This document shows positions 4,544 through 51,171 of a stretch of DNA of 64,000 nucleotides, in pieces. The position numbers were made by a program, and so were the translations under genes. The notes under the pieces were generated by a model. It was not told the DNA's origin. It searched no databases and saw only the letters and a program-made list of their open reading frames with translations. The stretch lies in the NCBI GenBank assembly GCA_963696395.1, contig CAVOJZ010000002.1, positions 656,344 to 720,343 on the forward strand. Direction: 5' to 3'. The stretch comes from an uncultured bacterium (GTDB lineage: Bacteria; Patescibacteriota; Minisyncoccia; UBA6257; 2-01-FULL-56-20). Within the stretch, counting starts at the first letter, position 1; every line of letters begins with the position of its first letter.

Positions 4544-4562
4544 AGGCCTCTTCGGCAATGCA

Positions 4563-4600
4563 AAAACAAAAACCCCGATCATGACGGGGTTTTTGTTTTT
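4563..4600. terminator. Intrinsic terminator (ccccg/cgggg stem, T-tract; A-tract upstream)
   Basis: aaaaaccccgatcatgacggggtttttgttttt. Confidence 0.7.
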
Positions 4601-4646
4601 GTGCGGATAGTAAATTGATATACTGAAGATGCCGTTCAATTGATCC

Positions 4647-9714: not shown

Positions 9715-11418
9715 ATGCCTTCTTCGACGACAGAACTCATAAAGAGCAAGCTCGACGTTGTTGATTTTCTGCGCGGCTATTTAACGCTCACGCCGGCCGG
9801 CAGGAACTTTAAGGCGCTGTGCCCGTTCCATCACGAAAAATCGCCTTCCTTTATGGTATCGCCCGACCGGCAGTCGTGGCATTGTTTTGGCTGCAGTTTA
9901 GGCGGCGACATTTTCACTTTTATTATGCGGTATGAAAATTTGGAATTCGGTGAAGCCATGCGGATGCTTGCCGAGAAAGCCGGCGTGGAGTTGCGCCATG
10001 AGAATCCCGCAGAGTACCGCTATAGCGGATTGCTCTACGACCTGAATGAGCAGGCGAAAAATTATTATCGCAAAGCGCTCGCCGCTGCACCTGTGGCAAA
10101 AAAATATTTGGATGAGCGTGGATTAAAACCGGAGACGATTGAAACGTTTGAAATCGGCTGGGCCCCGAACGAGCCCGAAGGCCTTTCAATGTTCCTGCTT
10201 AATTCCGGCAACGCGCCGCAGGACCTTATCCAGGCCGGCCTCTCTATTAAAACCGAGCGGGGATTGATGCTCGATCGGTTCCGCGGGCGCATCATGTTCC
10301 CGATTCACAATCATCTTGGCAAGGTGGTCGGATTTACGGGACGCATCCTGCCCCAGCTCGACCGCGGCGATATGGGCAAATATGTAAACAGCCCCGAAAC
10401 CGCGATTTTCCAAAAATCAAAACTGCTCTACGGTTTTTGGAAAAGCAAAGATTCCATCCGTGAGGCGAAGACCGCAGTCCTCATGGAAGGGCAGATGGAT
10501 TTTTTAATGAGTTACCAATCGGGGCTTACGAATGTCGTTGCGAGTTCCGGAACGGCGCTCACGGGCGACCATCTGCGCGTTATTCATCGGCTCGCCGAAG
10601 AAATCGTTTTGTGTTTCGACAGTGATGTTGCCGGAGCCGACGCGGCGGAACGGGCGATTGACCTTGCCGAAGCGAACGATTTCAGCGTGAAGATTGCAAC
10701 ATTCAAAGATTTTAAAGATGCCGCCGACGCGGCGAAAGCCGATCCTGAAAATGTGAAGAAAACGATTTCCGCCGCAGTGCAGGCGCCGTTATTTTATTTT
10801 GCAAAATATTTGCCCGAAGACGTTGCGGAGCTCAAGACGCGCGAAGGCCTCCACAAACTTCGGGCCGTACTTGGCAAGCTGAAGATCATTGCAAGCCCCG
10901 TCGAACGCGGCTTTTGGTTCGCCGATCTTGCAAGGCGCACCGGCATCAACGAAAGGACGCTTCAGGAGGAAGCCGAAAAAGCTGCGGTTATGGGAATCCC
11001 CGTGAACGCCCGGAAAGAAGAGGAAGTTGCCAAGCGCCAGATTTCGCGCCAGGATCGGTTGTGCGAACAGCTGCTCGTTGCGGCATTTGCAAAAAATAAT
11101 TTTGATCTCATCGAAGATTGCGTGCCCTATTTTAAGCCGGCGCAGAAAGAGGTGTATCGCATCCTAAAGGACGGCAAGAAGCGGAGCGAGGATCCATCGC
11201 TTGATGAAGTGGTCGGGCTTGTGGTCCTCGGTGCATCAAGCGAAATGAGCGACGAGGAAATCGCCGCGCTCAAGGCTGAGCTTGCGAAAGAGTATTATAA
11301 AGACCGCCGACAGATCCTCGCGATGGCCATCAAAAATGCCGAAGCCAAGGGAAACGAGCCGGAGTTAAAAGCCGCTCTCATGGAACTGAACGACCTGCCA
11401 TTCACTCCTGAAGGGTAG
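9715..11418 (+). CDS. dnaG: DNA primase
   Basis: CHC2 zinc finger CPFHHEKSPSFMVSPDRQSWHCFGCSLGGDIFTF, TOPRIM region, and operon position before rpoD. Confidence 0.9.
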   Translation: MPSSTTELIKSKLDVVDFLRGYLTLTPAGRNFKALCPFHHEKSPSFMVSPDRQSWHCFGCSLGGDIFTFIMRYENLEFGEAMRMLAEKAGVELRHENPAEYRYSGLLYDLNEQAKNYYRKALAAAPVAKKYLDERGLKPETIETFEIGWAPNEPEGLSMFLLNSGNAPQDLIQAGLSIKTERGLMLDRFRGRIMFPIHNHLGKVVGFTGRILPQLDRGDMGKYVNSPETAIFQKSKLLYGFWKSKDSIREAKTAVLMEGQMDFLMSYQSGLTNVVASSGTALTGDHLRVIHRLAEEIVLCFDSDVAGADAAERAIDLAEANDFSVKIATFKDFKDAADAAKADPENVKKTISAAVQAPLFYFAKYLPEDVAELKTREGLHKLRAVLGKLKIIASPVERGFWFADLARRTGINERTLQEEAEKAAVMGIPVNARKEEEVAKRQISRQDRLCEQLLVAAFAKNNFDLIEDCVPYFKPAQKEVYRILKDGKKRSEDPSLDEVVGLVVLGASSEMSDEEIAALKAELAKEYYKDRRQILAMAIKNAEAKGNEPELKAALMELNDLPFTPEG

Positions 11419-21222: not shown

Positions 21223-21660
21223 ATGGCAACCACACCAATAACAAAACATCCCGCGCCGGCACATGCCCACAAGCCCGGCCGCTACACCGAAGCTGTCGGC
21301 CGCCGCAAAACGGCGATCGCCCGCGTCCGCTTGATGAAAGGGGACGGCAAGGTGACAGTGAATGGCAAGGAGCTCAAGCATTATTTTGTCCTTTCGCGCC
21401 ACGCCATTGCGGCGCGCTCTCCGCTCGATCAGCTCAAGCTTGTTGACTTCGATGTGACCGCGCATGTTTCCGGTGGTGGCATTCATGCCCAGGCCGAAGC
21501 CATTCGCCTCGGACTCTCCCGCGCGATCGTTCTCAAAGATCCCGAATGGAAACCGCGCCTCCGCGCGATCGGTTTCATGACCCGCGATTCCCGCATGGTT
21601 GAGCGCAAAAAGTACGGCAAGAAGAAAGCCCGACGCAGTCCCCAGTGGGCGAAAAGGTAA
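21223..21660 (+). CDS. rpsI: 30S ribosomal protein S9 (ATG at 21223 immediately after the rplM stop; track start 21205 overlaps rplM)
   Basis: ...GRRKTAIARVRLMKGDGKVTVNGK...SGGGIHAQAEAIRLGLSRAI...RDSRMVERKKYGKKKARRSPQWAKR. Confidence 0.85.
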   Translation: MATTPITKHPAPAHAHKPGRYTEAVGRRKTAIARVRLMKGDGKVTVNGKELKHYFVLSRHAIAARSPLDQLKLVDFDVTAHVSGGGIHAQAEAIRLGLSRAIVLKDPEWKPRLRAIGFMTRDSRMVERKKYGKKKARRSPQWAKR

Positions 21661-21680
21661 AGATACAGAAATTGCACATG

Positions 21681-21790
21681 CAAAAACACCCCAGAGAATA
21701 TCTGGGGTGTAGTGTATGTGTTCAGAAAATGAATTGATGATTTTTTGTCGCCTTGTGTTCGGAAAATGAATAGAGAACTTTTCCGCCATC
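21681..21790. repeat. Copy 1 of a ~100-nt repeated intergenic element: 9-bp hairpin (acaccccag/ctggggtgt), which acts as a minus-strand terminator, followed by two direct repeats GTGTTC(A/G)GAAAATGAAT
   Basis: About 80% identical to 40208-40310. On the minus strand the hairpin is followed by TTTTTG. Confidence 0.6.
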
Positions 21791-21867
21791 TATGAGCGGA
21801 TCGTGCGGCAGGCGCGCGCATAGAAAAACGGGACCCTTTTCAGAGTCCCGCTGGTAAAAACGAATCA

Positions 21868-22725
21868 TCAGCGTGAGGCGAAGAAAGGATGGAGATCGGT
21901 TATCTCCAGCATCCCTTCTGGATAGAGGCCAACCAAGTCCAATGTTTCTTGGTCAATGCCCTTCCCCGTTTCATATTCGAGCGTCATTGTCGATGGCAGT
22001 TCGGCCAATTTCCGATGCTGTACCACCTCGACAAGTCGAGCTTCGAGGGCACGTTTGCCACCATCTTGGATGGTAGTCGCCGGATCAGCGCTCGCGTTGG
22101 CAACTCGGAGGATCGTTTGTTTGTCATTCACTTTGAACATGAATCTCATAGCGATCGACCCTTGCACCTTGATGCCGTCTGCGGTAATTGCCGTTGCGGT
22201 AGTCTTCACGTTGTAACCGTTTCTGAACGTCTTGATCGTTTGCACAAACGGTACACCAATGGCGGTATCAGACTTGATCGCTGGTTTCGATCCAATTACC
22301 CAAATGTCCGCCGTACCCTTCGCAGTGAAGATGAAAGCGGAAGCGAACAGGGGCAAAGAGATGGCAACGAATTGGAGCAGGTCGCCAACGGGCATCGGTG
22401 AATCATCTTCCGACGACAAACGATAGGAAGGTTTGGGGAGATAGGTCCGACGGGCAGTGTCTCGGTCAACTCCGTGACGCAGCCAAGCCCAGAGAAACTG
22501 GAAGCGCTCCTTGATCCGAAACACATACCAGCAACCCACAAGGATAAATAGGATCACTGAGCCAAGAGCTCCCAGAAGCACGACAGGGTTCTGTGTGTGA
22601 ATACCAGCGATGACTGAGAAAAGCACCATCGTCGAGAGAATCAGTTTGACGAGCAACCGGACAGTGAAACGCTTTGCTACTTCGGTTGCCGCCCTTGAAA
22701 TCGTTGGTGTCGTAACTGTGGGCAT
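21868..22725 (-). CDS. Membrane protein, SPFH/band-7-like (285 aa)
   Basis: Two N-terminal TM segments, then a region with weak SPFH-like character. It is longer and more coherent than the overlapping plus-strand ORFs. The repeat-element hairpin downstream could terminate it. Confidence 0.4.
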   Translation of the reverse strand: MPTVTTPTISRAATEVAKRFTVRLLVKLILSTMVLFSVIAGIHTQNPVVLLGALGSVILFILVGCWYVFRIKERFQFLWAWLRHGVDRDTARRTYLPKPSYRLSSEDDSPMPVGDLLQFVAISLPLFASAFIFTAKGTADIWVIGSKPAIKSDTAIGVPFVQTIKTFRNGYNVKTTATAITADGIKVQGSIAMRFMFKVNDKQTILRVANASADPATTIQDGGKRALEARLVEVVQHRKLAELPSTMTLEYETGKGIDQETLDLVGLYPEGMLEITDLHPFFASR

Positions 22726-22773
22726 AGCGCCCTCCTTTGCGAAATTTGATCCGATAAGATCTGCGGACTACCT

Positions 22774-23833
22774 GAATTCTAGTTTGAATCGCAACGACCA
22801 TTGAACACCTCTCGTGGAGTGAGATAGCCGAGCCGTTTTCTCGGACGGTCATTGAGCAGTCGGACGACTCGGTCGATATCGGATTGTTTCACGATAGCAA
22901 AATCCATACCTTTTGGAAAGAATTGCCGGAGCAGGCCGTTCCAATTCTCATTCGATCCGCGTTCCCAAGAGTGATAGGGCGTCGCGCGGTAGACGGTAAT
23001 ATCAATATCTTTTTCAAGCAAACGATCGTAATCGCCGAACTCAGGACCGTTGTCACGTGTCATGGTGTGCCGCTTTTTCTTCGGGATCTTTTTGAACCGA
23101 TCGCGCGTGATCGCATGTACGTTCTCCGCAGTGACTTTTTCGACTTTGTCCGCCGCACCAAAACCACTCGCCCGATCGACGTGGGTGAGCATCCGTTGCT
23201 TTTTGGTGCGGTCAAGAATCGTATCGCCTTCCCAGTCGCCGATTCGCCTGCGCTCCTCAACCACCGGTGGGCGTTCTTCGATTCGCCTGATTTTCAATGC
23301 GTTCCGCTTGGCTTTCCTCGTGTTCGTGCCACGCCTCCTGCGCCACTTTCCCTTTTGATACCGCAGATATTTTTTGAGGTCCGACCGGTCGCGGTATACG
23401 AACTGGTAAATCGTCTCATGGGAGACGACGGTGTGTTTCGTCATTCGCTGCAAACGTCCCGCGATCTGTTCGGGCGACCAATAGTGCTTGAGTTTTCGCA
23501 TGACATGGCGGCGGAGCGTTCGATCATGCTTCAATTTCTGCGACGGTTCTTTGGCAGCAAACCTTCGGTATTGTGTCTTGTGATGGGCGCTGCCGCCGCG
23601 ATATACGCCGTCATCATCACGGTTCCTCCTGATCTCCCGACTGATTGTACCCGGACTCTTGCCAAGCCGGTCCGCGATCCATGACTGTGTTTTGCCCACC
23701 AAGAGCAGGTGGGCTAGCGCGACACGGTCGTCGCGCGTAAAATGCGAGTGCGACATCTCCGTTATGTGGGTTTTTGGTATTCGACGTACCGATATTCTCA
23801 CCCGCGGAGATGTTGCATTTCAAGATTGAATTC
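22774..23833 (-). mobile_element. IS30-family insertion sequence (~1.06 kb) with imperfect terminal inverted repeats sharing a GAATTC core
   Basis: Contains the IS30-type transposase gene. Left end tgaattctagtttgaatcgcaacg and right end (reverse complement) cgaattcaatcttgaaatgcaaca share about 18 of 26 positions. The transposase stop codon lies inside the terminal repeat. Confidence 0.7.
22779..23801 (-). CDS. IS30-family DDE transposase (likely ATG start at 23756, MSHSHF...; the track start at 23801 is GTG)
   Basis: HTH ...SWIADRLGKSPGTISREIRRN. C-terminus ...ERGSNENWNGLLRQFFPKGMDF...LNDRPRKRLGYLTPREVF matches the IS30 transposase C-terminal signature (GTNENTNGLIRQYFPK...NNRPRK). Confidence 0.85.
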   Translation of the reverse strand: MRISVRRIPKTHITEMSHSHFTRDDRVALAHLLLVGKTQSWIADRLGKSPGTISREIRRNRDDDGVYRGGSAHHKTQYRRFAAKEPSQKLKHDRTLRRHVMRKLKHYWSPEQIAGRLQRMTKHTVVSHETIYQFVYRDRSDLKKYLRYQKGKWRRRRGTNTRKAKRNALKIRRIEERPPVVEERRRIGDWEGDTILDRTKKQRMLTHVDRASGFGAADKVEKVTAENVHAITRDRFKKIPKKKRHTMTRDNGPEFGDYDRLLEKDIDITVYRATPYHSWERGSNENWNGLLRQFFPKGMDFAIVKQSDIDRVVRLLNDRPRKRLGYLTPREVFNGRCDSN

Positions 23834-23948
23834 GCGCCCTCTACAATGACGTTTTGCGCAAGCAATTGCCCAAAAAAGAAAAGGGAGAGGAAGAGAAGCC
23901 AAAAGCTGAATCCACAACGCAAGCGACCACATAAGAACGTGGTCAACT

Positions 23949-23978
23949 CCGCCGGACTTCTCGTCCGGCGGTTTCTTT
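23949..23978 (+). terminator. Orphan intrinsic terminator (ccgccggac/gtccggcgg stem + TTTCTTT)
   Basis: Perfect 9-bp stem with a U-tract on the plus strand and no upstream plus-strand gene. It may be a remnant or an insulator between the IS and the R-M operon. Confidence 0.5.
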
Positions 23979-24117
23979 ATGTTGGTGGATAACCAAACGT
24001 ATTTTGTGTCTCGCACTGCCTTGGATGAGGGGGCCTTGTGAGGACAAAACGGGGTTGTGTACGTCCCCCTTGATGGAAATGGCAAGAGGGAAAACGTCGA
24101 CAATTCTCGGCTAGACG

Positions 24118-24140
24118 CCGCTTAACGAGCGGTTTTTTTT
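24118..24140 (+). terminator. Orphan intrinsic terminator (ccgct/agcgg stem + T8)
   Basis: ccgcttaacgagcggtttttttt. Confidence 0.5.
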
Positions 24141-24389
24141 GTGATACATTGAAGTCACAACTGAATAGAAGTCGCCTAAACCTGTCAGAAATGGCGGGCA
24201 TGGCGCAAAGTCCGGTTAGACATAAAGAACCCATCATGTGGGATTGTCTAACCGGCCATATCGGGAAACCGATATGGAGGGCCAAAAACCCTCGCCTACG
24301 TGGTGGGCTTTTTATTAAAAAAGTTTTCTGCGTGGCGAGCTATATATCTTCAAGCCGGACGGAAGATATGGACGGAATCAGCCACGGTT

Positions 24390-26486
24390 ATGCCAAAAGA
24401 ACTACAAACGCAACTTTCCGATAACGAAAGACGAGACGTGATAAAGTATTTGGAAGCAGGGAAACCGCTTCCGGAAAAATATCGTTTTTTACTATTCAGT
24501 GAGGCTCAAGAGGTAGAGCTTCTTTGGAACGGTAAGACCAATGAGGTTACGAATGTCGTATTGCCGTTCCAAGTAATAGAGCAGATAGACGAACCAAGAA
24601 GCGATAAAAAGATTGGGCTGCAGGATTCTCTTTTCGATACTTCAGGCAGGCAGATAACGGGCTGGACGAATAAGCTGATCTGGGGCGATAACAAGCTTAT
24701 TCTTTCATCGCTCAATAATGGACCATTGCGAAAAGAAATAGAGGCGAATGGGGGCTTGAAATTGATTTACATCGATCCACCATTCGACGTTGGTGCCGAT
24801 TTTTCTATGGATATTAAAATCGGTGATGGCGATGATGAAGAAAGTTTTACAAAAAAACCATCAGTGATAGAAGAAATCGCTTATCGCGACACGTGGGGCA
24901 AGGGCGCTGACAGTTTTATTGCGATGGTGTATGAACGGTTAAAATTGATGCACGCCTTGTTAGCTGAAGACGGCAGTTTGTATGTTCATTGTGATTATCG
25001 TGTTAGTGGATATATGAGATTGGCTCTTGACGAAGTGTTTGGAAAAGATAACTTTAGAAATGAAATTGTATGGGGTTATAGGACGGGTGGTATCTCTAAG
25101 GAGTTTTTTGCTCGCAAACACGACATTGTGTTTTTCTATGCAAAGAATGCCGAGAAAGTAAAATTTAATACTCAATTTTATAAATCCTTCCAACAGAAAA
25201 AATATAATTTTAAAGGAGTTGAGGATTTATGGGATGAAGAAAAAGAGCAGTGGTACCATAACTCAGTTTGTCGGGACGTCTGGGAAGATGTGTTCCCAAT
25301 AGGAACCGAGAATAGCGAGCGCCTTGATTATCCGACACAAAAGCCAGTTGCGCTTCTCGACCGAATAATTAAAGCATCCTCAAATGAGGGCGACCTCATC
25401 GCCGATTTCTTCTGTGGTTCCGGGACAACACTTGCTGTTGCAGAAAAACTCGGTAGGAAATGGATTGGTTCCGATCTTGGAAAATTTGGCATTCATACGT
25501 CGCGCAAACGATTAGTCGGGACGCAGAGAGAACTCAAAAGGGAAGGCAAGAATTTTCGCGCCTTCGAGATTTTGAATGTCGGCAGATATGAAAGGGATAA
25601 TTTTCTCAAGTTGAATAACGATTTGCGTGCGGAGGAAAAAGCTAAGCAAGCAGAAAGAAAAGAGAAAGAATTCGTGCAACTAATCATTTCTGCATATAAA
25701 GCTGAACCAGTGGGGTCTTTTAAGACCCTGGTCGGGAAGAAACGCGATAGATTGGTTGCAGTTGGGCCAATCAATGCCCCGGTTTCCGAACGACTCGTTC
25801 AGCAGATCGTTGAGGAATGCGAGAAAATGAAGATAACTAAAGTGGACGTTCTGGGATTTGATTGGGAGATGGGCTTTGATCGACATGAATTCAGGGGGAG
25901 CGGCATTGATATCGCCTTTAAAGTAATTCCGAGAGAAGTGTTTGATAAGAAGGCAGTGGAAAAAGGCCAAGTCAAGTTTTACGATGTGGCATTCATTGAA
26001 GCGGAGCCGGTTATTAAAGGCAACGCCAACAATAAAGAACTTTCCATTGCACTTACAGATTTTTCCGTTTTTTATAACCAAGATGATTCCGGTGAGGTGG
26101 AGGAAGCCCTTCGACCTGGCGGCGTAAAAATTATCGTAGAAAATGGGCAGGTAGTGAAAATGTCAAAAGACAAAGCGACCGAACTCATTGAAAAGGAGAT
26201 ACTGACGAAGAAGTGGAGTGATTGGATTGACTATTGGGCAGTTGATTTTGATTTTTCGAGCCGAAAGGAGATTGTCAAAGTAATGGAAGGGGGCAAAGAG
26301 AATGAGGTCTGGACGGGGGATTACATTTTTGATAACGAATGGCAAAGCTTCCGGACAAAGAAGAACAGGAACCTTGAATTGACCTCCGCGCCCAAGGTAG
26401 TGCGAAAGGGGACGTATAAAGTCGCGGTTAAAGTCGTAGACATTTTCGGGAACGATACGACAAAGGTAATCGAGGTAAAAATATAA
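24390..26486 (+). CDS. mod: Type III restriction-modification DNA methyltransferase (Mod; beta-class N6A/N4C MTase); alternative GTG start at 24300
   Basis: ...[13 protein letters not shown]...[14 protein letters not shown] (motif IV DPPF) precedes motif [26 protein letters not shown]. The length and a C-terminal target-recognition-like region fit Mod. It is immediately followed by res. Confidence 0.8.
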
Positions 26487-26487
26487 T

Positions 26488-29181
26488 ATGGCCCTACCTA
26501 AAGATTTTCCCAAAGATCCCTATGCCATATTAGATCCGAGCATTCGATGGTTTCCTGCCGATGAAGATTTGCGCGAAAAAGGGTACGACAAACTTCTGCC
26601 TCCACTTGTCGCTGAATTACGCAAGAGAGTAAAGAAGTGGCGAGACGATCACTATGAAGGTGCAAGTGAAACCTCGCGAGCGCTTTTGAACTGGTGGTTT
26701 AATGAGGATCATATTTTGTACGACGAATATGGCGCATCGTCTCAGTTTAGATATTATTTTGCCCAAAGGGAGGCGTTAGAGACGGTTATCTGGTTATATG
26801 AGGTCGCAAAGGTCAAAGATAAGTACGACCTCATTCGATATAATTCGACCGGCGTGCTGAGTGCGGGGATGTTCACTGAAGACTGGTTGCGTTTTGTAAT
26901 CAAGATGGCAACGGGGTCGGGCAAAACCAAGGTGATGAGCCTTGTGGTGGCATGGGCATATTTCCATAAAAAATACGAATCAGATTCCAAATTGGCAAAG
27001 AATTTTCTCTTAATAACTCCTAATGTCATCGTCTTCGAAAGAATAAAGAACGATTTTGAGGGGTTGAAGATATTCTTTAGCGATCCCGTGTTACCGGAAA
27101 ATGGATATGAGGGTCAAAACTGGCAGGATGATTTTCAGATGACGCTTCACTTACAAGACGACTTGCGGAACGTCTCTGAAACGGGAAACATATTTCTAAC
27201 GAATATCCACCGAGTATATGAAAATGACGTAAGGGAAGCGAGTCCGGACGACGAGGATGCTTCTGCGTATTTCTTGGGCGAGAAGCCTGTTACGAAAACA
27301 AACGATTCTACGGTCGATTTAGGGATGATCGTCAGAGATATCGATGAGCTGATTGTCATCAACGATGAAGCGCATCATATACACGATGAAAAGATGGCGT
27401 GGTTCAAGTCGATTTTGGATATCGATAACAAATTGAAGCAAAAGGGGTCGGGTTTGGCTTTGCAGCTGGACGTGACAGCAACGCCAAAGAAAAGTGACGG
27501 GTCTATTTTTGTGCAAACCATTTCCGACTATCCACTTGTCGAAGCCATATACCAGAGAATCGTAAAAAATCCCGTTGTGCCGGATGCGGCGAGTAGGGGA
27601 AAACTGAAAGAAAATCAAAGTGCTTTGTTCAGTGAAAAATACAGGGATTACATAAACCTTGGCATTGAAGAATGGCGAAAAACGTACGAGACGCTCAAGC
27701 CCATGGGCAAGAAATCAATTCTTTTCATCATGACCGATGACACGAAGAACTGCGATGAGGTTGCTGAATATATCGAAACGAGCTACGCAGACTTGAAAGG
27801 GGCCGTCTTAACTATTCATACCAATAAGAGCGGTGAAATCTCGGAGAATGTTACCGGCAAGAACAAGGATGAATTGGATTTGCTGAGGAAACAGGCGAAC
27901 GATATAGATAGCTTGGAAAGCCGGTTTAAAGTAATCGTGTCGGTTATGATGCTCAAAGAAGGATGGGATGTCAAAAACGTCACCACAATCGTCGGGCTGA
28001 GGCCGTTTGCGGCAGATTCAAAGATATTGCCCGAACAAACCCTGGGGCGGGGTCTCCGAAGGATGTTCTTCGGCAGGGATGACGTTGAAGAATATGTGAG
28101 CGTCGTAGGCACACCGATGTTTATGGATTTCGTCGAATCCATCAAGGGCGAAGGTGTGATCCTTGAAAGGAAAGCGATGGGGAGTGGGTCAAAACCGATT
28201 ACGCCGATGGTCGTTGAAGTGGACAGGGAGAATCCCAAGAAAGATATTGAAAAGTTGGACATTGAAATACCGGTGATGTCTCCCAGGATACAAAGGGAGT
28301 ACAAGAATTTGGCGGAGTTAGATGTTTCCACTTTTGGGAATAAGAAGGTTAAAGTGAAAACTTTCTCCGAAGAGGAGAAAAGAGAAATAGTGTTCAAAGA
28401 CGTCGTCGATGAAAAGACGCATCATACGACCATATTGACCGGGGATATCGAGCCGGATTATCAAAGCGTTATCGGTTTTTTTGCTCAATCGGTGATGAGG
28501 GACCTTCGGCTGTTCGGCTGCTACGATATTTTATTCGGCAAGGTGAAGGAATTCGTGCAGCATCACCTGTTTGATAAGCCGGTGGATTTGTCGGATCTGA
28601 ATGTCTTGAGGAATTTATCGGAGATCGAATACATACGACTAATCAAAGAGTCCTTCAAAAAAGCCATCAACGAACTCACGGTGCAGGATAAAGGCGATGC
28701 CGAAATCAAGAACTATATTAAAATCAGTGAAGCGCGGCCATTCGTCGTCAATGATAAGTCCTACTTAATCCCTAAAAAATCAGTTTTCAATAGGATTGTC
28801 GGCGACAGCGATTTTGAACTCGTCTTCTCGGAGTTTATCGATAGGTGCGACGACATCATTTCTTTCTCAAAGAATTTTCAAAATAAGGAGACGAATGCTT
28901 TGAGGATTGAATATAAAAATTCGGAAGGTGTCATCGCTATGTACTATCCCGATTTCTTCGTTAAGAAAGATGATCGGACGGTCTATATTATTGAGACCAA
29001 GGGGAGAGAGGAGGAAGACGATAAATTGAAATTTGAACGATTACAAAAATGGTGCGAAGATGTTAATGAGAGACAGAGCAGAATGATGTATAAAGCTTTA
29101 TATATTAAGCAGGAGGAGTGGCAAAAAGAACGACTCAAGAATTTCGATGAGGTTATAAGGATGTTTGATAAAGAAAAATAG
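26488..29181 (+). CDS. res: Type III restriction enzyme Res subunit (SF2 helicase + C-terminal PD-(D/E)xK nuclease)
   Basis: Walker A IKMATGSGKTKVMS, DEAH-like VINDEAHHI, helicase motifs, and C-terminal YYPDFFV...IIETKG. The ATG is 1 nt after the mod stop, indicating translational coupling. Confidence 0.8.
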   Translation: MALPKDFPKDPYAILDPSIRWFPADEDLREKGYDKLLPPLVAELRKRVKKWRDDHYEGASETSRALLNWWFNEDHILYDEYGASSQFRYYFAQREALETVIWLYEVAKVKDKYDLIRYNSTGVLSAGMFTEDWLRFVIKMATGSGKTKVMSLVVAWAYFHKKYESDSKLAKNFLLITPNVIVFERIKNDFEGLKIFFSDPVLPENGYEGQNWQDDFQMTLHLQDDLRNVSETGNIFLTNIHRVYENDVREASPDDEDASAYFLGEKPVTKTNDSTVDLGMIVRDIDELIVINDEAHHIHDEKMAWFKSILDIDNKLKQKGSGLALQLDVTATPKKSDGSIFVQTISDYPLVEAIYQRIVKNPVVPDAASRGKLKENQSALFSEKYRDYINLGIEEWRKTYETLKPMGKKSILFIMTDDTKNCDEVAEYIETSYADLKGAVLTIHTNKSGEISENVTGKNKDELDLLRKQANDIDSLESRFKVIVSVMMLKEGWDVKNVTTIVGLRPFAADSKILPEQTLGRGLRRMFFGRDDVEEYVSVVGTPMFMDFVESIKGEGVILERKAMGSGSKPITPMVVEVDRENPKKDIEKLDIEIPVMSPRIQREYKNLAELDVSTFGNKKVKVKTFSEEEKREIVFKDVVDEKTHHTTILTGDIEPDYQSVIGFFAQSVMRDLRLFGCYDILFGKVKEFVQHHLFDKPVDLSDLNVLRNLSEIEYIRLIKESFKKAINELTVQDKGDAEIKNYIKISEARPFVVNDKSYLIPKKSVFNRIVGDSDFELVFSEFIDRCDDIISFSKNFQNKETNALRIEYKNSEGVIAMYYPDFFVKKDDRTVYIIETKGREEEDDKLKFERLQKWCEDVNERQSRMMYKALYIKQEEWQKERLKNFDEVIRMFDKEK

Positions 29182-29556
29182 ATGGACACGATCCACCTCG
29201 TCCATAATGGTTTCAAAGAGCCAACGAAGGAAGCCGCTGATTTGAAGGACGAGCTTAAGAAACGCGGTGTTAAGGTTTACGTGGAACTCAACGACGGATA
29301 TAAACATGTCGATCTGGCACTTCCCGATGCAAAGCTCAACGTTGAAGTGGATGGTGTTCACCACCTTACTAACCCGAAACAGATCGTAACAGACCTCAGT
29401 CGTGGATATTATTCGAACAAGTTAGGATATAGCACTATGCATATCCCAAACGAGATGATTCGTCTGCACCTAAAAGAAATAGCGGACGCGCTCGCCGAGG
29501 CATCGAAGATGCTCGAACAGAAGATACGAATTCACCTCACTGGGGACGATAAATAA
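29182..29556 (+). CDS. DUF559/Vsr-like endonuclease-fold protein (124 aa)
   Basis: VEVDGVHHL motif. The start abuts the res stop codon, so it is co-operonic with the R-M genes. Confidence 0.5.
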   Translation: MDTIHLVHNGFKEPTKEAADLKDELKKRGVKVYVELNDGYKHVDLALPDAKLNVEVDGVHHLTNPKQIVTDLSRGYYSNKLGYSTMHIPNEMIRLHLKEIADALAEASKMLEQKIRIHLTGDDK

Positions 29557-29567
29557 CAAAAGTTGCC

Positions 29568-29705
29568 ATGAACGCTTTCGTCAAATTAATAATAGGATTA
29601 GCGGCACTGATATTTATAACGTTTATGACGATGGCTTTCGGCATGGGCGGGTTCTTCTTTACACTCGGACTTTTTGCCGTAGTAGTGTGGGCTTTTGCGA
29701 AATAG
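29568..29705 (+). CDS. Small hydrophobic membrane protein (45 aa)
   Basis: MNAFVKLIIGLAALIFITFMTMAFGMGGFFFTLGLFAVVVWAFAK. It is not in the ORF track because it is under 60 aa. Confidence 0.3.
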   Translation: MNAFVKLIIGLAALIFITFMTMAFGMGGFFFTLGLFAVVVWAFAK

Positions 29706-29745
29706 CTGCGCATAATCAATCCATGGAGACAAGCAACCGAAAAAA

Positions 29746-29970
29746 ATGATCTCGCAAGAAGCATTGGAAGAATTTAAGGCAATCTATAAAAACCAGTTCG
29801 GCATCGAGCTATCGGACCAAGATGCCCTAGAAAAGGCCACGAAACTTCTCACGCTGATGAAGGCCGTTTATAAGCCCATAACAAAAGAGCAATACGATAC
29901 GGTCGAGAAGCGGCGCAAAGAGTTAGATAATGGGGCATGCGTGGGAAAGCCACGTATGAGGAGATGCTGA
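29746..29970 (+). CDS. Hypothetical small helical protein (74 aa)
   Basis: ORF only; co-oriented with its neighbours. Confidence 0.3.
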   Translation: MISQEALEEFKAIYKNQFGIELSDQDALEKATKLLTLMKAVYKPITKEQYDTVEKRRKELDNGACVGKPRMRRC

Positions 29971-29979
29971 TTTTAGGGC

Positions 29980-30195
29980 ATGAGCAGGAAAGCTGCTGAT
30001 GGAGGAGAATTGATTTTGTATAATGAAGGCATGAAAGAGAGAAGGGTTGTTGAGTTGCTCCATCATTTTTATTGCAAGAAGTGTAAGAAGTGGTGGTCGA
30101 TAGGTGATGCGCCGACAAACAGGCACGTCTGGTTTTGCCCATGGTGCGGAAGGGAAAATAATTACCGGCTCAAAAAAAGCAGGGCGAAGCGCTAA
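29980..30195 (+). CDS. Small zinc-ribbon protein, copy 1 (conserved 54-aa core MKERRVVELLHHFYCKKCKKWWSIGDAPTNRHVWFCPWCGRENNYRLKKSRAKR begins at ATG 30031)
   Basis: CxxC-x16-CxxC ribbon with a basic C-terminus. The core is about 90% nt-identical to 55905-56080. The conserved block starts at ttgtataatgaaggcATG, where TATAAT sits 6 nt before the ATG. Confidence 0.55.
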   Translation: MSRKAADGGELILYNEGMKERRVVELLHHFYCKKCKKWWSIGDAPTNRHVWFCPWCGRENNYRLKKSRAKR

Positions 30196-30320
30196 CCTCG
30201 CGCTTTCGACCTGGGATAGCAAAGATTTTAGCTCAACAAAGGTTGGGCTATTTTCTTAGTACCTTTATCCCCGCCTCTTCATTTTGCCCCCGGAACAAGG
30301 TAGAATAAAGGGTAAGACTC
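30177..30320 (+). repeat. Intergenic module copy: hairpin 1 (gaagcgc/gcgcttt), terminator hairpin (agctcaac/gttgggct + ATTTTCTT, 30230-30258), promoter-like segment with C5 tract, 5' leader
   Basis: Shared with 34540-34704, 51050-51131, 56081-56119 and, in part, 40160-40200, 44905-44965 and 57035-57113. Confidence 0.7.
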
Positions 30321-33300
30321 ATGGCAGGCAACCTTTATAAGAAATCCCTCTATATATTGATAGCTCTCGGGCTCATCTGTTTTGGGATGCAGGTGAAACT
30401 GGCGGAGGCGGTGATCTTTCAGGTTGAGGTTGCGAGCTCGACGGGAAACGCAGTCAATTCTAGTGCGACTACGAGTTTCGCTACCTCGACAACGGCAGGA
30501 GAGTTTATCGTTGTTCATGTGAGCCCGACGCTTGTGAATGGCAGTACCGGTACTAGTACGGTCACTGACAATAAAGGCGATGTTTATACCGAGCTGTGGG
30601 CCGTCCATCAGAATTTTAACTATAACAACGAGCTCTTCTACCTCGCCGATGCCCCGCAAGGAGTGACAACGATCAGTGTCACGTTCCCTACTGGAGTGAC
30701 CAGTGGGGGTGTCATTGCTGCCCATTACACGGGAGTGGTAACCGCGAATCCACTAGACGTCTATTCTGCACCCCCTACTGGCGGTGGTTATTCACTCACT
30801 CCGTGGTCGAGTGGTGCGGTTACAACGAGCTATGCAAACGAGCTTCTAATAGGAACCGACTTCGCCCTTGAGGACGCTGGCAGCTGTACCATCGCGCCAA
30901 GTGGCAGTTGGACGCAGGATGCGAGTATGGGCGACAGTAACGGATTCGACGGTCATAACGGCGATGCAATGTCTTACGCCCATCAAATAGTCTCTACCGT
31001 TCAGACAAACATTCAGAACACAGGGATCAATCCCATCGGAACCTGCTACAACTATCCCGGCATCGCAACGTTCAAAGGTTTAGCTGCCACTACATCCACT
31101 CCCTCCGTCGCCTGGGTTACTCCGACTCAGAACGCTACCGTCTCCTCTACGATTACGCTCACGGCATCATCCACCGACGAGATTGCCGTCGCAAACGTTG
31201 CTTTCTACGAATCTCCCTCCGGTGCGAACTTCGCAAGCAGCACGCTTATCGGATCGACCTCCACCGCCTCAGGGACCCTCTACTCCATACCTTGGAACAC
31301 AAAAAACGTATCAAACGGTTCAACCACCCTCTGGGCTTTAAGTACGGACACCTCAAATAACACATCCACCGCATCGACTACGGTGAATGTAGAAAATGTG
31401 CCCACCATCAATTCCTTCTCCGCTTCTGCCACCATCGTCCTCTCCGCAGGAACATCAACGTTGAGTTGGAACGTCACGAAAGCAAGTTCCGTCGCCATCA
31501 CCCCAGGAAGCTTCTCGACCAGCACCCTCATCGGAGCGACTACCGTGAATCCCACTTCAACAACGGTTTATACCCTCACCACAGCGAACAGCAATGGCAC
31601 GAGCACCGCATCAACTACGGTGACCGTCGACTCCGCCCCTCCCACGACCCCCACCGGCCTCACCGCAACATCAACGTCCTCCACGGCCGTCGAGCTCTCT
31701 TGGGCATCCTCAACCGACAGTGGCGGTCCTGGTCTCGCCGGATACAACATCTTCAGATGTATCGGATCATGTACCCCAGGTGCGCCCGCGATCGCTACTT
31801 CTTCCGGCGCTTCCTATGGCGACACCGGACTTAGCGCTTCCACCACCTACACCTATGCCGTCTCGGCCTATGACACACTGGGACTCACCTCCGCCACTTC
31901 GACTACGGCAAGCGCAACAACCCAAGTAGGCCGCACCTTTTATATCGCTGCGAATGGCAATGACTCCAGCAACGGCACCTCAACATCAACGCCCTGGGCA
32001 CATGCTCCTGGCATGCCCAACTGCACGTCGATCTGCGCTTCGACCACTCCTCAGCCAGGCGACCGATATATTTTCAGGGGCGGGGATACGTGGCATTTCG
32101 GAAATAGTAGTGCCACGCCTTATGTCGGCGGAACATGGAATTGGAGTTGGAGTGGGACGTCTACGAATTGTGATACTTCTGACGCACCGTCGCCCGTGAG
32201 AACCTCGTGCATTTATATTGGTGTCAACAAAACTTGGTATTCGGGAAGTTCGTGGGCGCGTCCCATTATGAATGGCGACAATCCAACAAGCACGACCGCA
32301 GTAGCGAGTTGCTTATACGGAAACGTAGGCCCTCAGAATCAGTTCTTGCTTGTAGACAATGAAGCATTTGCGTGGTTCGACAGTTTTGAGTGGACTGGTA
32401 TGTGTCACAGCACGCCTTCCTCTGCGGGTAATAACTACGGAAATAATTACGATCTCTACATCGCAGACCCCGGTGGGTCAAGTGAAATCACTCAAAATAT
32501 TTTCTCAAATAATTATTTCCATGGATGGACCCATGTCCCGTTGTCTTGTTCTGACGCGAGCGGAGAACCAGTTGGGCAATGTTTTTCTGACTCTGCGATC
32601 TCTGGTGGTCTTATGACCACGTTCGGGCCGGGAAATATATGCGACGGCTGGGATTCTGATCCGTCAGATGTGGGTTGTATATTGTTCGCTCCTGGTTATC
32701 TCGTATACGATAATGTGTTTGCAAATATGGCGCAGATTGTGGTAAACGCCTATCACGATTGGCACGACAATCTTTGGTTTAACTACTATCCAACCGACGA
32801 CGGGGTAGCTCATGGCAATTCGTTTGAGTCGAACGTCGATGCTCCGCAGCACGATGAAGATGGGTATTATCAGCCCAACGTACCCTTCAACGTTTTCTAC
32901 GATAATATTTTAGGGAACAATGCGAGCGGCACCGGAGGCGATGTGAAGCTTTGGTTTACGCCAAACAATACTGCCGCCGAATATTACTTCAATAATATTG
33001 TTTATGACCAGGGAAGTGGGAACAATTGGGACATTGATACTTCGCAAGGCGGCGCGGCGGGACAGTTTATGTTTAATAACACGCTTGATGTGCCCAATGC
33101 CGGATCGCTAAACTGCACATCGCATTTAACCGTAACCGGAAATCACGAGGTCGTTGATGGGGGGTCGGCCTTTGCGAACGGTTCTTGCTCAATTTCGAAC
33201 GAGATCCAAATGACCCATGCAACTGCAGTGGCGCAAGCTTATATGGCAACCGGAAGAGGCACGAGTGGATCGAACAACAACACAACCTGTGCAAATAGCT

Positions 33301-34508
33301 CGACTCCGTGTGCGCCAACCGCATCGAGCAATGCCACCGTTGGAGCCGGAGCTAATTTGCAGAATTATTGCACCACCCTTCTTGGATCGGGTGACGGTGA
33401 AATTGTCCGAGCAGGAAGTGCTTGCGAATCCGGGACAACTGATGCTTGTGCCTACAACGCAGTCAACCACACGGTCTCATGCCCGGCGTTTACGCCGATC
33501 GCCCGCCCAATCTCCACGGCCTGGGACGCCGGCGCCTATGAATATCAGAATACATCAGGCACTCCTCCCACCATCTCCTCTTTCTCCTCCTCTCCTCTCT
33601 ACACCCAGCCAAGCGCCACCTCAACCCTCTCCTGGAACATCACGAACGCAAGTTCTGCTCTGATTGTTAACCTAACCACAGGTATACCCCTTCCGACAGG
33701 AACCGTCCTTGTCTATCCCACGTCTACCACCACCTACATCCTCTCTGCCTCAAACCCCAATGGCACCTCCACCGCAGCAACAACCATTACCGTGCAAAGC
33801 ATCCCTCCCTCAGTACCCCAGAATCTCTCGGCAGATCCCGTATCCACCTCGGAAATTGATCTCTCCTGGACGGCAAGCACAAGCACGATCCCCATATCCG
33901 GCTATGGCATATTTGAAAACAGCGTGCAGATCGCAACGACCTCGGCTACCAGTTACCAGAACACCGGTCTCTCAGAAGACACCACCTACACCTATGCGGT
34001 AGATGCCTTTGATGCCGCAGGGAATGTATCAGGACAAAGCTCATCCACAAGCGCAACCACGGAAACCCAGCAATCTGGAGGGGGCGGAGGTGGCGGCGGT
34101 GGCGGGGGAGGTGGAGGTGGTGGTTGCTACTACAACTGCAGCTATGGAGGTTCTTCCTTCACAAGCACCGCCTCAGGCACGAATGGGACCGGAAGCTCTT
34201 CTCTCCTTGCAACACTTCTCGCGGAGCTTGAAACCTTGATCAAAGTATTGAATACCCAATTAGTCACGTCTTTCACACGAAACCTCACCCTGGGGAGCCG
34301 GGGAGCTGACGTAGAAAACCTCCAGATCTTCCTCAATGACAATGGCTACCCCATAGCACAGACGGGAGCAGGATCCCTCGGACATGAATCAATCTACTTT
34401 GGGACCAAGACGGCACAGGCTCTGGCCAAATGGCAGAAGGCCAACGGACTTCCGGCTACCGGTTACTTTGGGGGACTGACGAGGAGATTACTCAACAAGC
34501 TGTATTAG
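30321..34508 (+). CDS. Giant surface protein paralog (1395 aa): signal peptide, Ig-like and FN3 domains, beta-helix domain, Ig-like/FN3, poly-Gly, C-terminal PG-binding module
   Basis: Signal peptide LYKKSLYILIALGLICFGMQ. FN3-like PTTPTGLTATSTSSTAVELSWASSTDSGG. Beta-helix region FYIAANGNDSSNGTSTSTPWAHAPGMPNCTS shared with the 41049 gene. C-terminus LNDNGYPIAQTGAGSLGHESIYFGTKTAQALAKWQ. Confidence 0.8.
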   Translation: MAGNLYKKSLYILIALGLICFGMQVKLAEAVIFQVEVASSTGNAVNSSATTSFATSTTAGEFIVVHVSPTLVNGSTGTSTVTDNKGDVYTELWAVHQNFNYNNELFYLADAPQGVTTISVTFPTGVTSGGVIAAHYTGVVTANPLDVYSAPPTGGGYSLTPWSSGAVTTSYANELLIGTDFALEDAGSCTIAPSGSWTQDASMGDSNGFDGHNGDAMSYAHQIVSTVQTNIQNTGINPIGTCYNYPGIATFKGLAATTSTPSVAWVTPTQNATVSSTITLTASSTDEIAVANVAFYESPSGANFASSTLIGSTSTASGTLYSIPWNTKNVSNGSTTLWALSTDTSNNTSTASTTVNVENVPTINSFSASATIVLSAGTSTLSWNVTKASSVAITPGSFSTSTLIGATTVNPTSTTVYTLTTANSNGTSTASTTVTVDSAPPTTPTGLTATSTSSTAVELSWASSTDSGGPGLAGYNIFRCIGSCTPGAPAIATSSGASYGDTGLSASTTYTYAVSAYDTLGLTSATSTTASATTQVGRTFYIAANGNDSSNGTSTSTPWAHAPGMPNCTSICASTTPQPGDRYIFRGGDTWHFGNSSATPYVGGTWNWSWSGTSTNCDTSDAPSPVRTSCIYIGVNKTWYSGSSWARPIMNGDNPTSTTAVASCLYGNVGPQNQFLLVDNEAFAWFDSFEWTGMCHSTPSSAGNNYGNNYDLYIADPGGSSEITQNIFSNNYFHGWTHVPLSCSDASGEPVGQCFSDSAISGGLMTTFGPGNICDGWDSDPSDVGCILFAPGYLVYDNVFANMAQIVVNAYHDWHDNLWFNYYPTDDGVAHGNSFESNVDAPQHDEDGYYQPNVPFNVFYDNILGNNASGTGGDVKLWFTPNNTAAEYYFNNIVYDQGSGNNWDIDTSQGGAAGQFMFNNTLDVPNAGSLNCTSHLTVTGNHEVVDGGSAFANGSCSISNEIQMTHATAVAQAYMATGRGTSGSNNNTTCANSSTPCAPTASSNATVGAGANLQNYCTTLLGSGDGEIVRAGSACESGTTDACAYNAVNHTVSCPAFTPIARPISTAWDAGAYEYQNTSGTPPTISSFSSSPLYTQPSATSTLSWNITNASSALIVNLTTGIPLPTGTVLVYPTSTTTYILSASNPNGTSTAATTITVQSIPPSVPQNLSADPVSTSEIDLSWTASTSTIPISGYGIFENSVQIATTSATSYQNTGLSEDTTYTYAVDAFDAAGNVSGQSSSTSATTETQQSGGGGGGGGGGGGGGGGCYYNCSYGGSSFTSTASGTNGTGSSSLLATLLAELETLIKVLNTQLVTSFTRNLTLGSRGADVENLQIFLNDNGYPIAQTGAGSLGHESIYFGTKTAQALAKWQKANGLPATGYFGGLTRRLLNKLY

Positions 34509-34539
34509 AAGAGAGGACAAAAAGAAATTTCCTAAAGTC

Positions 34540-34704
34540 CATCATGCACCGGAGCATTGCAGTGGGCGAAGCGCTAACCTGACGCTTCGGACCTGGTATA
34601 ACAAAGATTTTAGCTCGACAAAGGTTGAGCTATTTTCTTATATACTTATCCCCACCTCCTCATTTTGCCCCCCCCAGAACACGGTAAACTGATAAGTAAG
34701 CTCT
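34540..34704 (+). repeat. Intergenic module copy: hairpin 1 (cgaagcg/cgcttcg), terminator hairpin 34611-34639, promoter-like segment with poly-C8 (~34667-34674), leader
   Basis: See 30177-30320. There is no intact zinc-ribbon gene upstream; only its 3' tail (gggcgaagcgctaa) remains. Confidence 0.7.
34667..34674 (+). promoter_or_regulatory. Poly-C8 homopolymer in the putative -35/-10 spacer (TTTTGC-C8-AGAACACGG-TAAACT) upstream of the 34705 gene
   Basis: Homopolymeric tract between -35-like and -10-like hexamers about 30 nt upstream of the ATG. Coordinates +/-1. Confidence 0.4.
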
Positions 34705-40116: not shown

Positions 40117-40207
40117 AAGGAGGCAGCAAAAAAGAAATTTCCTAAAGTCCACCGTGAACCAGGGCATTGCAGTGGGCGAAGCGGTGAGCGTTCAGGAATT
40201 GGATATA

Positions 40208-40310
40208 CGAAAACACCCCAGAGAAAATCTGGGGTGTTTGCTATGTGTTCAGAAATCGAATACGTCTTTTTCTTGTCGTGATGTATTCAGAAAATGGACA
40301 TGCGAATATT
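40208..40310. repeat. Copy 2 of the ~100-nt hairpin + direct-repeat element
   Basis: aaaacaccccagagaaaatctggggtgt...tatgtgttcagaaatcgaat...tcttgtcg...gtattcagaaaatgga aligns with 21681-21790. Confidence 0.6.
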
Positions 40311-40343
40311 GAGCAATGAACCTCAACGAGATAGAATTAACGT

Positions 40344-40877: not shown

Positions 40878-40979
40878 GGGAGCCTTTTCGTGGTGATACC
40901 TTACTATACTACAAAATTGCTGTCAAAAGTCAACGGGTGGCCCGCGTACCGCAGTGCACGAAGGGATAAGATCAAGATC

Positions 40980-41048
40980 TGCCGCGTTATCCCCACCTCC
41001 TCATTTTGCCCCCCCCAGAACACGGTAAACTGATAAGTAAGACACTAC
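40980..41048 (+). repeat. Promoter/leader part of the intergenic module (identical to 34645-34704) including poly-C8 (~41009-41016)
   Basis: ttatccccacctcctcattttgccccccccagaacacggtaaactgataagtaag is repeated verbatim. Confidence 0.7.
41009..41016 (+). promoter_or_regulatory. Poly-C8 homopolymer in the putative promoter spacer upstream of the 41049 gene
   Basis: Same context as 34667-34674. Confidence 0.4.
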
Positions 41049-44897: not shown

Positions 44898-45096
44898 AGG
44901 AGAGGGCGAGAAGAAACTTCCGTGGGCGAAGTGTTAAAGCAGCACTTTCGTCCCAGTATTTCACTGAAAATGCTCTTGCTAAGTCAAGGGCATTTTGGGT
45001 TTTTAAAGAGCGGAGGGGAGAGGGTAAGAAGCTGGCGGGCAGGTATTTTGAAACTTTTTTCCCGTCTGGGTAGTACCTATAGATAAGAACATCGCT

Positions 45097-51131: not shown

Positions 51132-51171
51132 TGGATCGAGAACAAACAAAGCAAAGTGGTAAAATGAAACA

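Follow-up and report, generated by a model that had tools for sequence, protein, structure and literature searches.

What accounts for the presence, ~18.5 kb apart, of two diverged copies of the end of a ribosomal protein gene, only one of which has the gene in front of it? This question is raised by a 64-kb stretch of the genome of an uncultured member of the Patescibacteriota (contig CAVOJZ010000002.1, positions 656,344 to 720,343; hereafter the window), in which a module of ~135 nt is found both on the intact 3′ end of rpsI, the gene for ribosomal protein S9 (copy 1; 21643-21775, plus strand), and ahead of a NYN/LabA-family gene (copy 2; 40170-40303, plus strand). We suggest, with a probability of roughly two in three, that these copies are direct repeats, copy 1 attL-like and copy 2 attR-like, left by the serial integration (accretion) of foreign DNA at the rpsI 3′ end. 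As part of the same proposal, the rpsI 3′ end is best read as a hotspot at which insertion has recurred in this clade of Paceibacteria-like bacteria of the Candidate Phyla Radiation (CPR).

Both copies are recovered with an nhmmer profile derived from twelve module copies, which yields two full-length matches only in the 64 kb (21643-21773; e-value: 2e-35 and 40170-40303; e-value: 4e-39). The repeated element described at these positions in the original prediction, which was made from the sequence alone, is therefore real, with a mean column identity of 80% in a two-sequence alignment (76-80% overall across comparisons; 67-72% outside of the hairpin described below). Two copies are indeed present, but the extent of ~100 nt given there was too short, as the shared homology begins ~40 nt further to the left, within rpsI. 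The first 18 nt of the copies (CAGTGGGCGAAAAGGTAA in copy 1 and CAGTGGGCGAAGCGGTGA in copy 2) both translate to QWAKR*. In copy 1 they comprise the last five codons and the stop codon of rpsI (CAG TGG GCG AAA AGG TAA; 21643-21660, plus strand), a core which forms the left limit of all module copies, while in copy 2 they constitute an rpsI-end relic (CAG TGG GCG AAG CGG TGA; 40170-40187, plus strand). The three differences between the two cores are all synonymous or stop-to-stop. Copy 1 thus completes rpsI, while copy 2 repeats the last 18 nt of the gene and ~115 nt of its flank without rpsI in front, the in-frame open stretch upstream amounting to nine codons.

Beyond the core, each copy harbors a hairpin rich in guanine and cytosine (GC), located at 21686-21710 in copy 1 (ACACCCCAG-AGAATAT-CTGGGGTGT, preceded by an A-tract and followed by a T-rich tail, and as such bidirectionally terminator-like) and at 40213-40237 in copy 2 (both plus strand). 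With its flanks (AAACACCCCAGAGAA-N-ATCTGGGGTGT) it occurs exactly twice in the 64 kb, where no occurrence is expected. The stems of 10-12 bp fold with z-scores of -4 to -5.4 relative to shuffled sequence, and the GC-rich stem-loop followed by a U-tract was recognized by sequence scan as a predicted intrinsic terminator. The hairpin had been taken for a minus-strand terminator; its terminator-like character is borne out, and the scan does flag the minus strand in copy 1 (21710-21686), but in copy 2 it flags the plus strand (40211-40239). The terminator stem is invariant among eleven aligned module copies, and the A-tract before it is kept in all copies in an alignment of fourteen modules.

The two direct repeats reported to follow the hairpin require a similar revision. 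The 17-mer motif GTGTTCAGAAAATGAAT is matched four times in the window at ≤3 mismatches (0.24 expected) and is confined to the two copies, but the supposed direct repeats are imperfect 17-bp palindromes (TGTTCA-N5-TGAAYA), with a third, overlooked one lying before the hairpin. Three palindromes thus surround the GC hairpin in each window copy, all on the plus strand, namely motif 0, located between the stop codon and the hairpin (21662-21679 in copy 1, where the alignment of fourteen modules gives the degenerate form TRTTCA-N5-TGRAYA, and 40189-40205 in copy 2), DR1 (21718-21734 and 40245-40261) and DR2 (21755-21771 and 40283-40299). By alignment to a related locus, L104 (related metagenomic loci are designated by L numbers), DR2 of copy 1 forms the right edge of the module. 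No further palindrome is found outside of the modules in the 64 kb at ≤1 mismatch. Perfect palindromes occur in some relatives, such as GTGTTC-GGAAATT-GAACAC in L089. The ends of the module (CAGTGGGC... and ...TGRAYA) are not inverted repeats of one another.

An uninterrupted counterpart of the locus is found in L104/L105, which belong to a different species with an S9 protein 91% identical to that of the window. Here a single module is all that separates rpsI from the NYN gene. The L104 module is a hybrid, resembling copy 1 from the core as far as the left half of DR2 and then continuing into the right flank of copy 2, with the NYN promoter and gene (~91% identity over ~70 nt by manual count, and 96.1% over 492 nt further on). 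The difference between window and L104 thus amounts to 18.4 kb of DNA bracketed by two module copies. A second comparison involves the near-isogenic loci L101/L102 and L103, which are 100% identical over 931 nt of rplM and rpsI and split immediately after CAGTGGGC, beyond which they have different rpsI ends and flanks. The 96.1% identity between window and L104 applies to positions 40481-40972 and 10387-10878, respectively, a segment made up of the last two-thirds of the NYN gene and the adjoining downstream sequence; the ribosomal protein operons of the two share 78.9% nucleotide identity, and the similarity of the NYN segment points to its recent horizontal exchange. The L104 NYN gene itself carries an internal deletion of ~100 nt.

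The two window copies do not appear to descend from a single duplication event. Copy 2 shares 91.7% identity over 133 nt (96% after the hairpin) with the rpsI-attached module of L090, while the rpsI coding regions of the two genomes are 73.7% identical. Similarly, copy 1 shares 90% identity over 109 nt with the module of L082, with two mismatches in the first ~100 nt, while the ribosomal protein genes share 75%. Judged from these alignments, the copies are not each other's closest relatives and have different evolutionary origins. Since each is nearer to the module of another species than to its partner, duplication in place followed by divergence is rejected; the local segmental duplication entertained in the original prediction is rejected as well, the 92% identity of copy 2 to the L090 module exceeding the 76-80% that it shares with copy 1. 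Mosaic modules are observed in addition. That of L089 resembles copy 2 (93%) up to the hairpin and copy 1 beyond it, the left part of the L093 module matches L085 and its right part L086, and two relics in L100 have identical middles while differing at both ends.

A scan of metagenomes with the hairpin gave twelve related loci, and longer contigs were obtained from look-ups of close S9 homologues. The further copies that had been anticipated do exist, the module being present in more than fifteen metagenomic loci. It directly follows an intact rpsI in at least eight related metagenomic species (L004/L095, L082, L085, L089, L090, L096, L100, L103 and L104/L105), with the rpsI-proximal module of L100 being split by an insertion sequence (IS). 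Relics lacking rpsI are found in L084, L086, L088, L091, L093 and, twice, L100, as well as in window copy 2, and in L100 three modules stand in tandem across 9 kb. In the 1.5 Mb of fetched loci, all module copies, including the two in the window, are located at or downstream of rpsI. The left flanks of the relics are mostly unrelated, and each relic starts within ~8 nt of the same CAG, with all HMM matches starting at model position 1 or 2. The relic in L086 is fused in frame to a permease gene, which ends in ...SPQWAKR*. The genes to the right of the module also vary, and include those for an opposite-strand membrane protein, a ParB-methylase, Fic, DUF3800 and dTMP kinase proteins and secreted proteins.

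All fifteen module versions examined encode (Q/E)WAKR*, in nine different nucleotide spellings. Seven of these lack an intact rpsI upstream, six clearly and one, L093, provisionally, the available upstream sequence being 22 nt in length. The retention of the peptide across nine spellings argues that the versions diverged while serving as genuine rpsI ends, and we interpret the pattern, on the basis of these alignments, as the signature of a gene-end fragment exchanged by integration.

Shorter traces of the rpsI end extend this picture beyond the two modules. The core recurs at six more sites in the window (30180, 34560, 44920, 51051, 57033 and, in degenerate form, near 56070), all on the plus strand, downstream of rpsI, intergenic and at the boundaries of gene cassettes, with none in the 21 kb upstream; at ≤2 mismatches the core 14-mer has six matches in the window against 0.5 expected. 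These traces, which we term type II relics, have the form (C)AGTGGGCGAAGCGCTAA, in which the rpsI-derived GGGCGAAGCG is the 5′ arm of a small hairpin that is followed by a second, terminator hairpin. The relic at 30180-30291 (CAGGGCGAAGCGCTAA, with small hairpin and terminator; repeat family D14) marks a boundary within the inserted region, and that at 34560-34673 (CAGTGGGCGAAGCGCTAA, with hairpin and terminator; located by pattern search and folding) lies between two surface-protein genes. A degenerate relic at 44920-44990 (CCGTGGGCGAAGTGTTAA; pattern search) retains a hairpin with compensatory changes, and a further one is found at 51051-51164 (TAGTGGGCGAAGCACTAA, with hairpin and terminator; pattern search and family D14). 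The last (57033-57065; GGGGCGAAGCGCTAA, with a hairpin; pattern search and folding) stands just past a TspO gene. Between the paralogous type II hairpins compensatory changes occur (GCG/CGC versus GTG/CAC). In L098, the S9 protein of which is 92% identical, the type II architecture is the genuine rpsI flank. Relics are also present 0.3-5.5 kb downstream of rpsI in L098 (10443-10515 and 11792), the closed relative L002 (OY970126.1; 13949 and 15960) and L121, while L106-L113 contain none. Two open reading frames (ORFs) end in frame inside a relic (...AKR*), namely the L086 permease and window positions 29980-30195. Taken at face value, the window looks like a polar series of approximately eight units, each opening with a former rpsI end.

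Two sequence features adjoining the relics were observed alongside this series. The stretch CCTAAAGTCC-N21 is found directly to the left of the core at 34509-34559 and 40117-40169 and in the unrelated L091 relic, with a degenerate form (CCAAAGTCA) at 51024, and may be part of the other arm of a recombination site. In L121 (S9: 94% identity), a GC-rich and strongly self-complementary insert of ~295 nt (1121-1415), which opens with a 14-bp inverted repeat (AACCAAATACACAT...ATGTGTATTTGGTT) and has no match in Rfam, separates the rpsI stop codon from the relic AAGTGGGCGAAGCGCTCA.

These observations can be accommodated in a model in which the attachment module would consist of the last five codons and stop codon of rpsI, a GC hairpin terminating transcription, and three or four 17-bp palindromes (TGTTCA-N5-TGAACA). 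An incoming DNA circle with its own version of the module would recombine with the resident one, whereby the rpsI reading frame would stay complete and the other version would move to the far side of the insert, without rpsI. Repeated rounds would generate a tandem array, with older and shorter rpsI-end relics marking older boundaries. Copies 1 and 2 would then be the repeats of the most proximal block, with the hairpin ending transcription of rpsI and of whatever lies beyond. The joining itself would probably proceed by site-specific recombination, and as the palindromes are palindromic, occur only in modules and coincide with the module edges, they are proposed as putative binding or crossover sites for a recombinase or accessory protein. 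The DNA enclosed is typical accessory and defence material, including a Type III restriction-modification (R-M) system of low GC content, an IS and a DUF559 gene, while Fic, ParB_N-methylase, DUF3800 and ASCH genes are found beside modules elsewhere.

Several observations weigh against accretion at rpsI as formulated here. No tyrosine or serine recombinase is encoded in the 64-kb window, nor within ~10 kb downstream of rpsI in eight relatives. The search comprised Pfam comparisons of 30 window ORFs, ten L002 ORFs and ten module neighbours, together with precomputed Pfam lists for the eight relatives, and no Phage_integrase, Resolvase or Recombinase domain was present among the scanned window ORFs or the gene lists of the relatives. 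With no integrase at either end, the island is not an autonomous integrative and conjugative element (ICE) or integrative and mobilizable element (IME), and would at best be decayed or mobilized in cis or trans. Likewise, no free or viral form bearing the module was recovered, a scan of viral contigs with the hairpin and two 18-nt core variants giving chance matches only, none of which had a module downstream. L104 is of a different species (79% nucleotide identity in the ribosomal protein operon), and as such does not serve as a strict empty-site control. The position of the crossover is ambiguous, the relic edges and the L103/L102 pair pointing to the CAGTGGGC core and the L104 hybrid to DR2; the core is favoured as the primary crossover because the relics keep their coding capacity and because of the L103/L102 pair. 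The mosaics among lineages break at the hairpin, motif 0 and DR1, which would also fit homologous exchange. Furthermore, the surface-protein genes of the island have paralogues outside of it, and local duplication may account for some of the growth of the array. On balance, we consider that a recombinase probably acts in trans or was lost, with the island representing a decayed element akin to the cis-mobilizable elements (CIMEs). The joining may be attributed either to mobilization of decayed elements in cis or trans, as is known for accreted remnants at rpsI of streptococci, to a recombinase encoded elsewhere, or to homologous recombination after uptake.

The last of these possibilities can be developed into an explanation of its own, in which DNA taken up by presumably competent cells, or a circle carrying a module homologue, is inserted within the ~135-nt module by RecA-type (Campbell-like or homology-facilitated) recombination without any dedicated recombinase. 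The lack of a nearby integrase, the spread of mosaic breakpoints across the whole module and an insert of less than 20 kb carrying an R-M system are all in its favour, and integrase-less R-M insertions with long repeats over gene 3′ ends have been described for the most part from species with natural competence (PMC2853133). Near-identical repeats would, however, be expected from a true target duplication, whereas the window copies share 76-80% identity and each is nearer to the module of another species. Furthermore, the common left edge of the relics in many lineages and the clean switch after CAGTGGGC suggest a fixed site, and the L104 junction falls at DR2 although the hairpin holds the longest runs of identity. 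We regard this explanation as unlikely, although it retains some weight. Somewhat less probable still is a portable 3′ untranslated region (UTR) or terminator cassette acting at the RNA level, by stabilizing or processing mRNA or as a 3′-UTR-derived or minus-strand small RNA (sRNA). Every relic is located just past, or fused in frame to, the stop codon of a plus-strand gene, the hairpins are strong (z-scores of -4 to -5), the type II hairpins show compensatory changes, all copies retain the A-tract (on the minus strand, a U-tract), and a weak, sub-threshold match to a Bacteroides sRNA spans the rpsI end. A small RNA, as had been suggested in the original prediction, is nevertheless not borne out, as the promoter scan of either copy returned no minus-strand promoter, no Rfam family reaches its threshold for the module, and there is no meaningful covariation outside of the invariant stem; in the consensus fold of eleven modules, only the palindromes pair with one another beyond the stem, without covariation (RNAalifold term: -0.39 kcal/mol). 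An RNA function would also leave the movement of the copies, the synonymous 18 coding nucleotides and the bracketing of foreign DNA unexplained, and is compatible with attachment sites rather than an alternative to them. With respect to the Rfam comparisons, only the LOOT RNA described below and a tRNA reach the gathering score in the window and four loci, and scans of both copies and L121 by e-value gave weak sub-threshold matches only (best: 24 bits versus 175 and 20 versus 114). One such match, to the Bacteroides sRNA BTnc005 (21605-21715, plus strand; 23.9 bits versus a gathering score of 174.8), covers the rpsI 3′ end and the hairpin; it probably reflects similarity in the rpsI coding sequence, and hints that sRNAs derived from the rpsI 3′ end may exist elsewhere.

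The palindromes, with their 17-bp length and 6-bp half-sites, are typical of operators, and could be bound by a dimeric transcription factor controlling the right-hand gene, such as the NYN gene, their duplication being incidental. In copy 2 they lie 10-100 nt upstream of the promoter-like NYN site, and DR2 of L089 overlaps a possible -35 element, as read by eye from the sequence. This explanation, which also featured in the original prediction, is very improbable, given that the right-hand gene differs in nearly every genome, that NYN homologues elsewhere lack the module, and that the 64 kb contain no additional site at ≤1 mismatch; as there are no other sites in the window, their identity as LexA boxes seems unlikely as well. 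The least credible of the explanations is a non-autonomous transposon resembling a miniature inverted-repeat transposable element (MITE), or local segmental duplication followed by divergence in place. The module is a discrete unit of ~135-180 nt with defined edges and different flanks (L088, L091 and L092), and an IS30-family transposase is encoded 1 kb away. The MITE suggested earlier does not withstand inspection of the ends, since terminal inverted repeats are lacking, no target-site duplications flank any of eight relics checked, and every copy opens with the last codons of rpsI itself. Furthermore, the inverted repeats of the IS are unrelated to the module, copies occur only at or downstream of rpsI instead of being dispersed, and the two copies are not sisters. 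The original prediction was nevertheless correct in linking the element to mobile DNA and in assigning it a role at a boundary.

With accretion at rpsI retained as the preferred explanation, the flanks and contents of the island can be described. The rpsI gene (21223-21660, plus strand; Pfam Ribosomal_S9, e-value: 3e-41) is the last gene of the rplQ-rplM-rpsI block, and copy 1 stands, as had been noted, at the border between the ribosomal operon and accessory DNA. The core block upstream of it comprises infA, rpsM, rpsK, rpsD, rpoA, rplQ, rplM and rpsI, according to the gene list of the identical assembly L001 (ERR11563597), a second assembly in which the exact S9 protein of the window is also found. 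The closest S9 proteins derive from bins of Candidatus Paceibacterota and Patescibacteria, and the best matches in a set of species-representative genomes, which does not include the source genome, share 71-74% identity. The right flank, common to the window and L104/L105, consists of a promoter-like site (TTGAGC-17-TAGAAT; 40309-40337) and the NYN/LabA-family gene (40344-40877, plus strand). NYN genes are common across Patescibacteria, where they have other neighbours and lack the module, and the adjacency of rpsI and NYN is therefore local to this lineage.

Between the copies lie ~18.4 kb of inserted, accreted DNA (21776-40169), delimited on the basis of Pfam comparisons, the GC profile and its absence between rpsI and NYN in L104/L105. 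In order, it contains a gene for a 285-amino-acid membrane protein without a family match in Pfam, an IS30-family IS, a LOOT RNA, the mod and res genes of a Type III R-M system, a DUF559 endonuclease gene and two giant surface-protein genes with fn3 and PG_binding domains. The GC content falls to 0.42-0.45 at 24-30 kb against ~0.52 around it. This low-GC cargo includes the Type III R-M genes (24300-29181, plus strand; mod: 24300-26486, N6_N4_Mtase; res: 26488-29181, ResIII). The LOOT RNA (Rfam RF03000; 24173-24293, plus strand; 89.9 bits against a gathering score of 46.4) lies directly upstream of the methyltransferase gene. At least seven paralogous giant secreted proteins of 1067-1803 amino acids are encoded in the window (1340-8585, 30321-44897 and 51172-61181), which, where scanned, contain fn3/Big domains and a Gly-rich linker, with PG_binding_1 as the C-terminal domain. 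Many of their genes have 5′ leaders, 3′ ends and the sequence for the signal peptide in common (repeat families D1-D19), and relics bound only those located downstream of rpsI.

The IS30-family IS (22768-23837, minus strand; ~1.07 kb) encodes an HTH_38 + rve transposase and is bounded by 22-bp imperfect terminal inverted repeats, identified by Pfam and repeat comparison. Its inverted repeats are unrelated to the module, and it is an independent passenger. The transposase was also considered as a possible integrase of the island and rejected, as it belongs to this self-contained 1.07-kb element, which occupies a different position in L100. There, a copy sharing 77% identity (7331-8400) is inserted exactly in the terminator hairpin of the rpsI-proximal module, a position which suggests targeting of hairpins or palindromes, as in some members of the IS30 family. 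IS30 itself uses 24-bp palindromic hot spots. A further example of an IS30-family element targeting palindromes or terminators is IS1630 (PMC2853133), and the L100 copy, located in the module hairpin, would fit this behaviour; as a separate element with its own inverted repeats, the IS does not explain the 135-nt repeat.

The closest parallel to the locus is found in streptococci, where the rpsI 3′ end is an integration site of IMEs and ICEs that encode tyrosine integrases of three families and are flanked by long or short direct repeats, and where tandem accretions and decayed elements are frequent (PMC5357655; see also Pavlovic 2004 and Bellanger 2011, as cited therein). The window shares with these ICE-, IME- and CIME-like elements the end of the same target gene, flanking repeats of which one completes rpsI, tandem stacking, and integrase-less decayed elements. 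In contrast, tyrosine integrases of defined families are encoded by the streptococcal elements or by intact relatives of these, and no such gene is seen at the window locus, where, furthermore, the host is Paceibacteria-like and the repeat, ~135 nt in length and ~80% identical, carries a terminator and three to four palindromes. In the islands of tRNA genes (Islander, as outlined in PMC4383910) and the tycheposons of Prochlorococcus (bioRxiv 10.1101/2020.12.28.424599), the target is likewise regenerated while a displaced fragment marks the distal end. Older material pushed outward by successive integrations, scattered partial copies of the target and integrase-less cargo are also shared, but the target in the window is the end of a protein-coding gene (18 nt and its 3′ flank), and no integrase-bearing member was found among the loci compared. 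R-M insertions with long target duplication (PMC2853133) resemble the locus in having inserts of less than 20 kb with an R-M system, repeats of more than 30 bp over a gene 3′ end, no integrase, and hosts that are presumed to be competent. In those insertions the repeats are near-perfect matches to each other and to the empty site, and boundaries differ from case to case, whereas the window repeats have diverged to 76-80% overall identity and their left edge is fixed.

Integron arrays (attI/attC) share with the window polar growth from a single anchor, imperfect repeats containing hairpins, cassettes without a recombinase, and mosaic site halves. They differ in that the window anchor lies inside a ribosomal protein gene, with no adjacent IntI-type integrase, no recognizable attC organization (R''-L''/L'-R') and multi-gene units of up to 8 kb. 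A bolder version of our proposal, which we advance tentatively and hold to be improbable, is that the last rpsI codons anchor an integron-like accretion of cassettes in CPR bacteria, with the recombinase encoded elsewhere or of the host Xer type, and that the hairpin and palindromes form a new multipartite site. If this were so, each unit would bring its own rpsI-end mimic and terminator, and the array in the window would consist of eight units over ~36 kb, each starting with a CAGTGGGCGAAGCG relic. Such an array would assemble giant surface-protein genes, transporters and defence systems.

The CPR bacteria, or Patescibacteria, have tiny genomes with few recognizable mobile elements, and the means by which they acquire accessory genes are poorly understood. 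The locus described here belongs with the gene 3′-end integration hotspots at which accretion occurs, in this case in a CPR lineage and with a repeat that is unusual in its length, divergence and structure. In principle the phenomenon is already known; as far as our searches of the literature went, no description of it for Patescibacteria was found. The lack of an integrase nearby raises the concrete question of which enzyme joins the DNA. The signature of the relics, (C)AGTGGGCGAA..G.TRA outside of rpsI, would allow acquired units to be delimited in CPR metagenome bins. The hotspot itself is defined by the final 18 nt of rpsI together with the terminator flank, at which foreign DNA appears to have been stacked repeatedly in several species. 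The stacked DNA carries genes for restriction-modification, for toxin-type products and for giant surface proteins, and these are probably of importance to episymbiotic attachment and to defence against phages in these bacteria.

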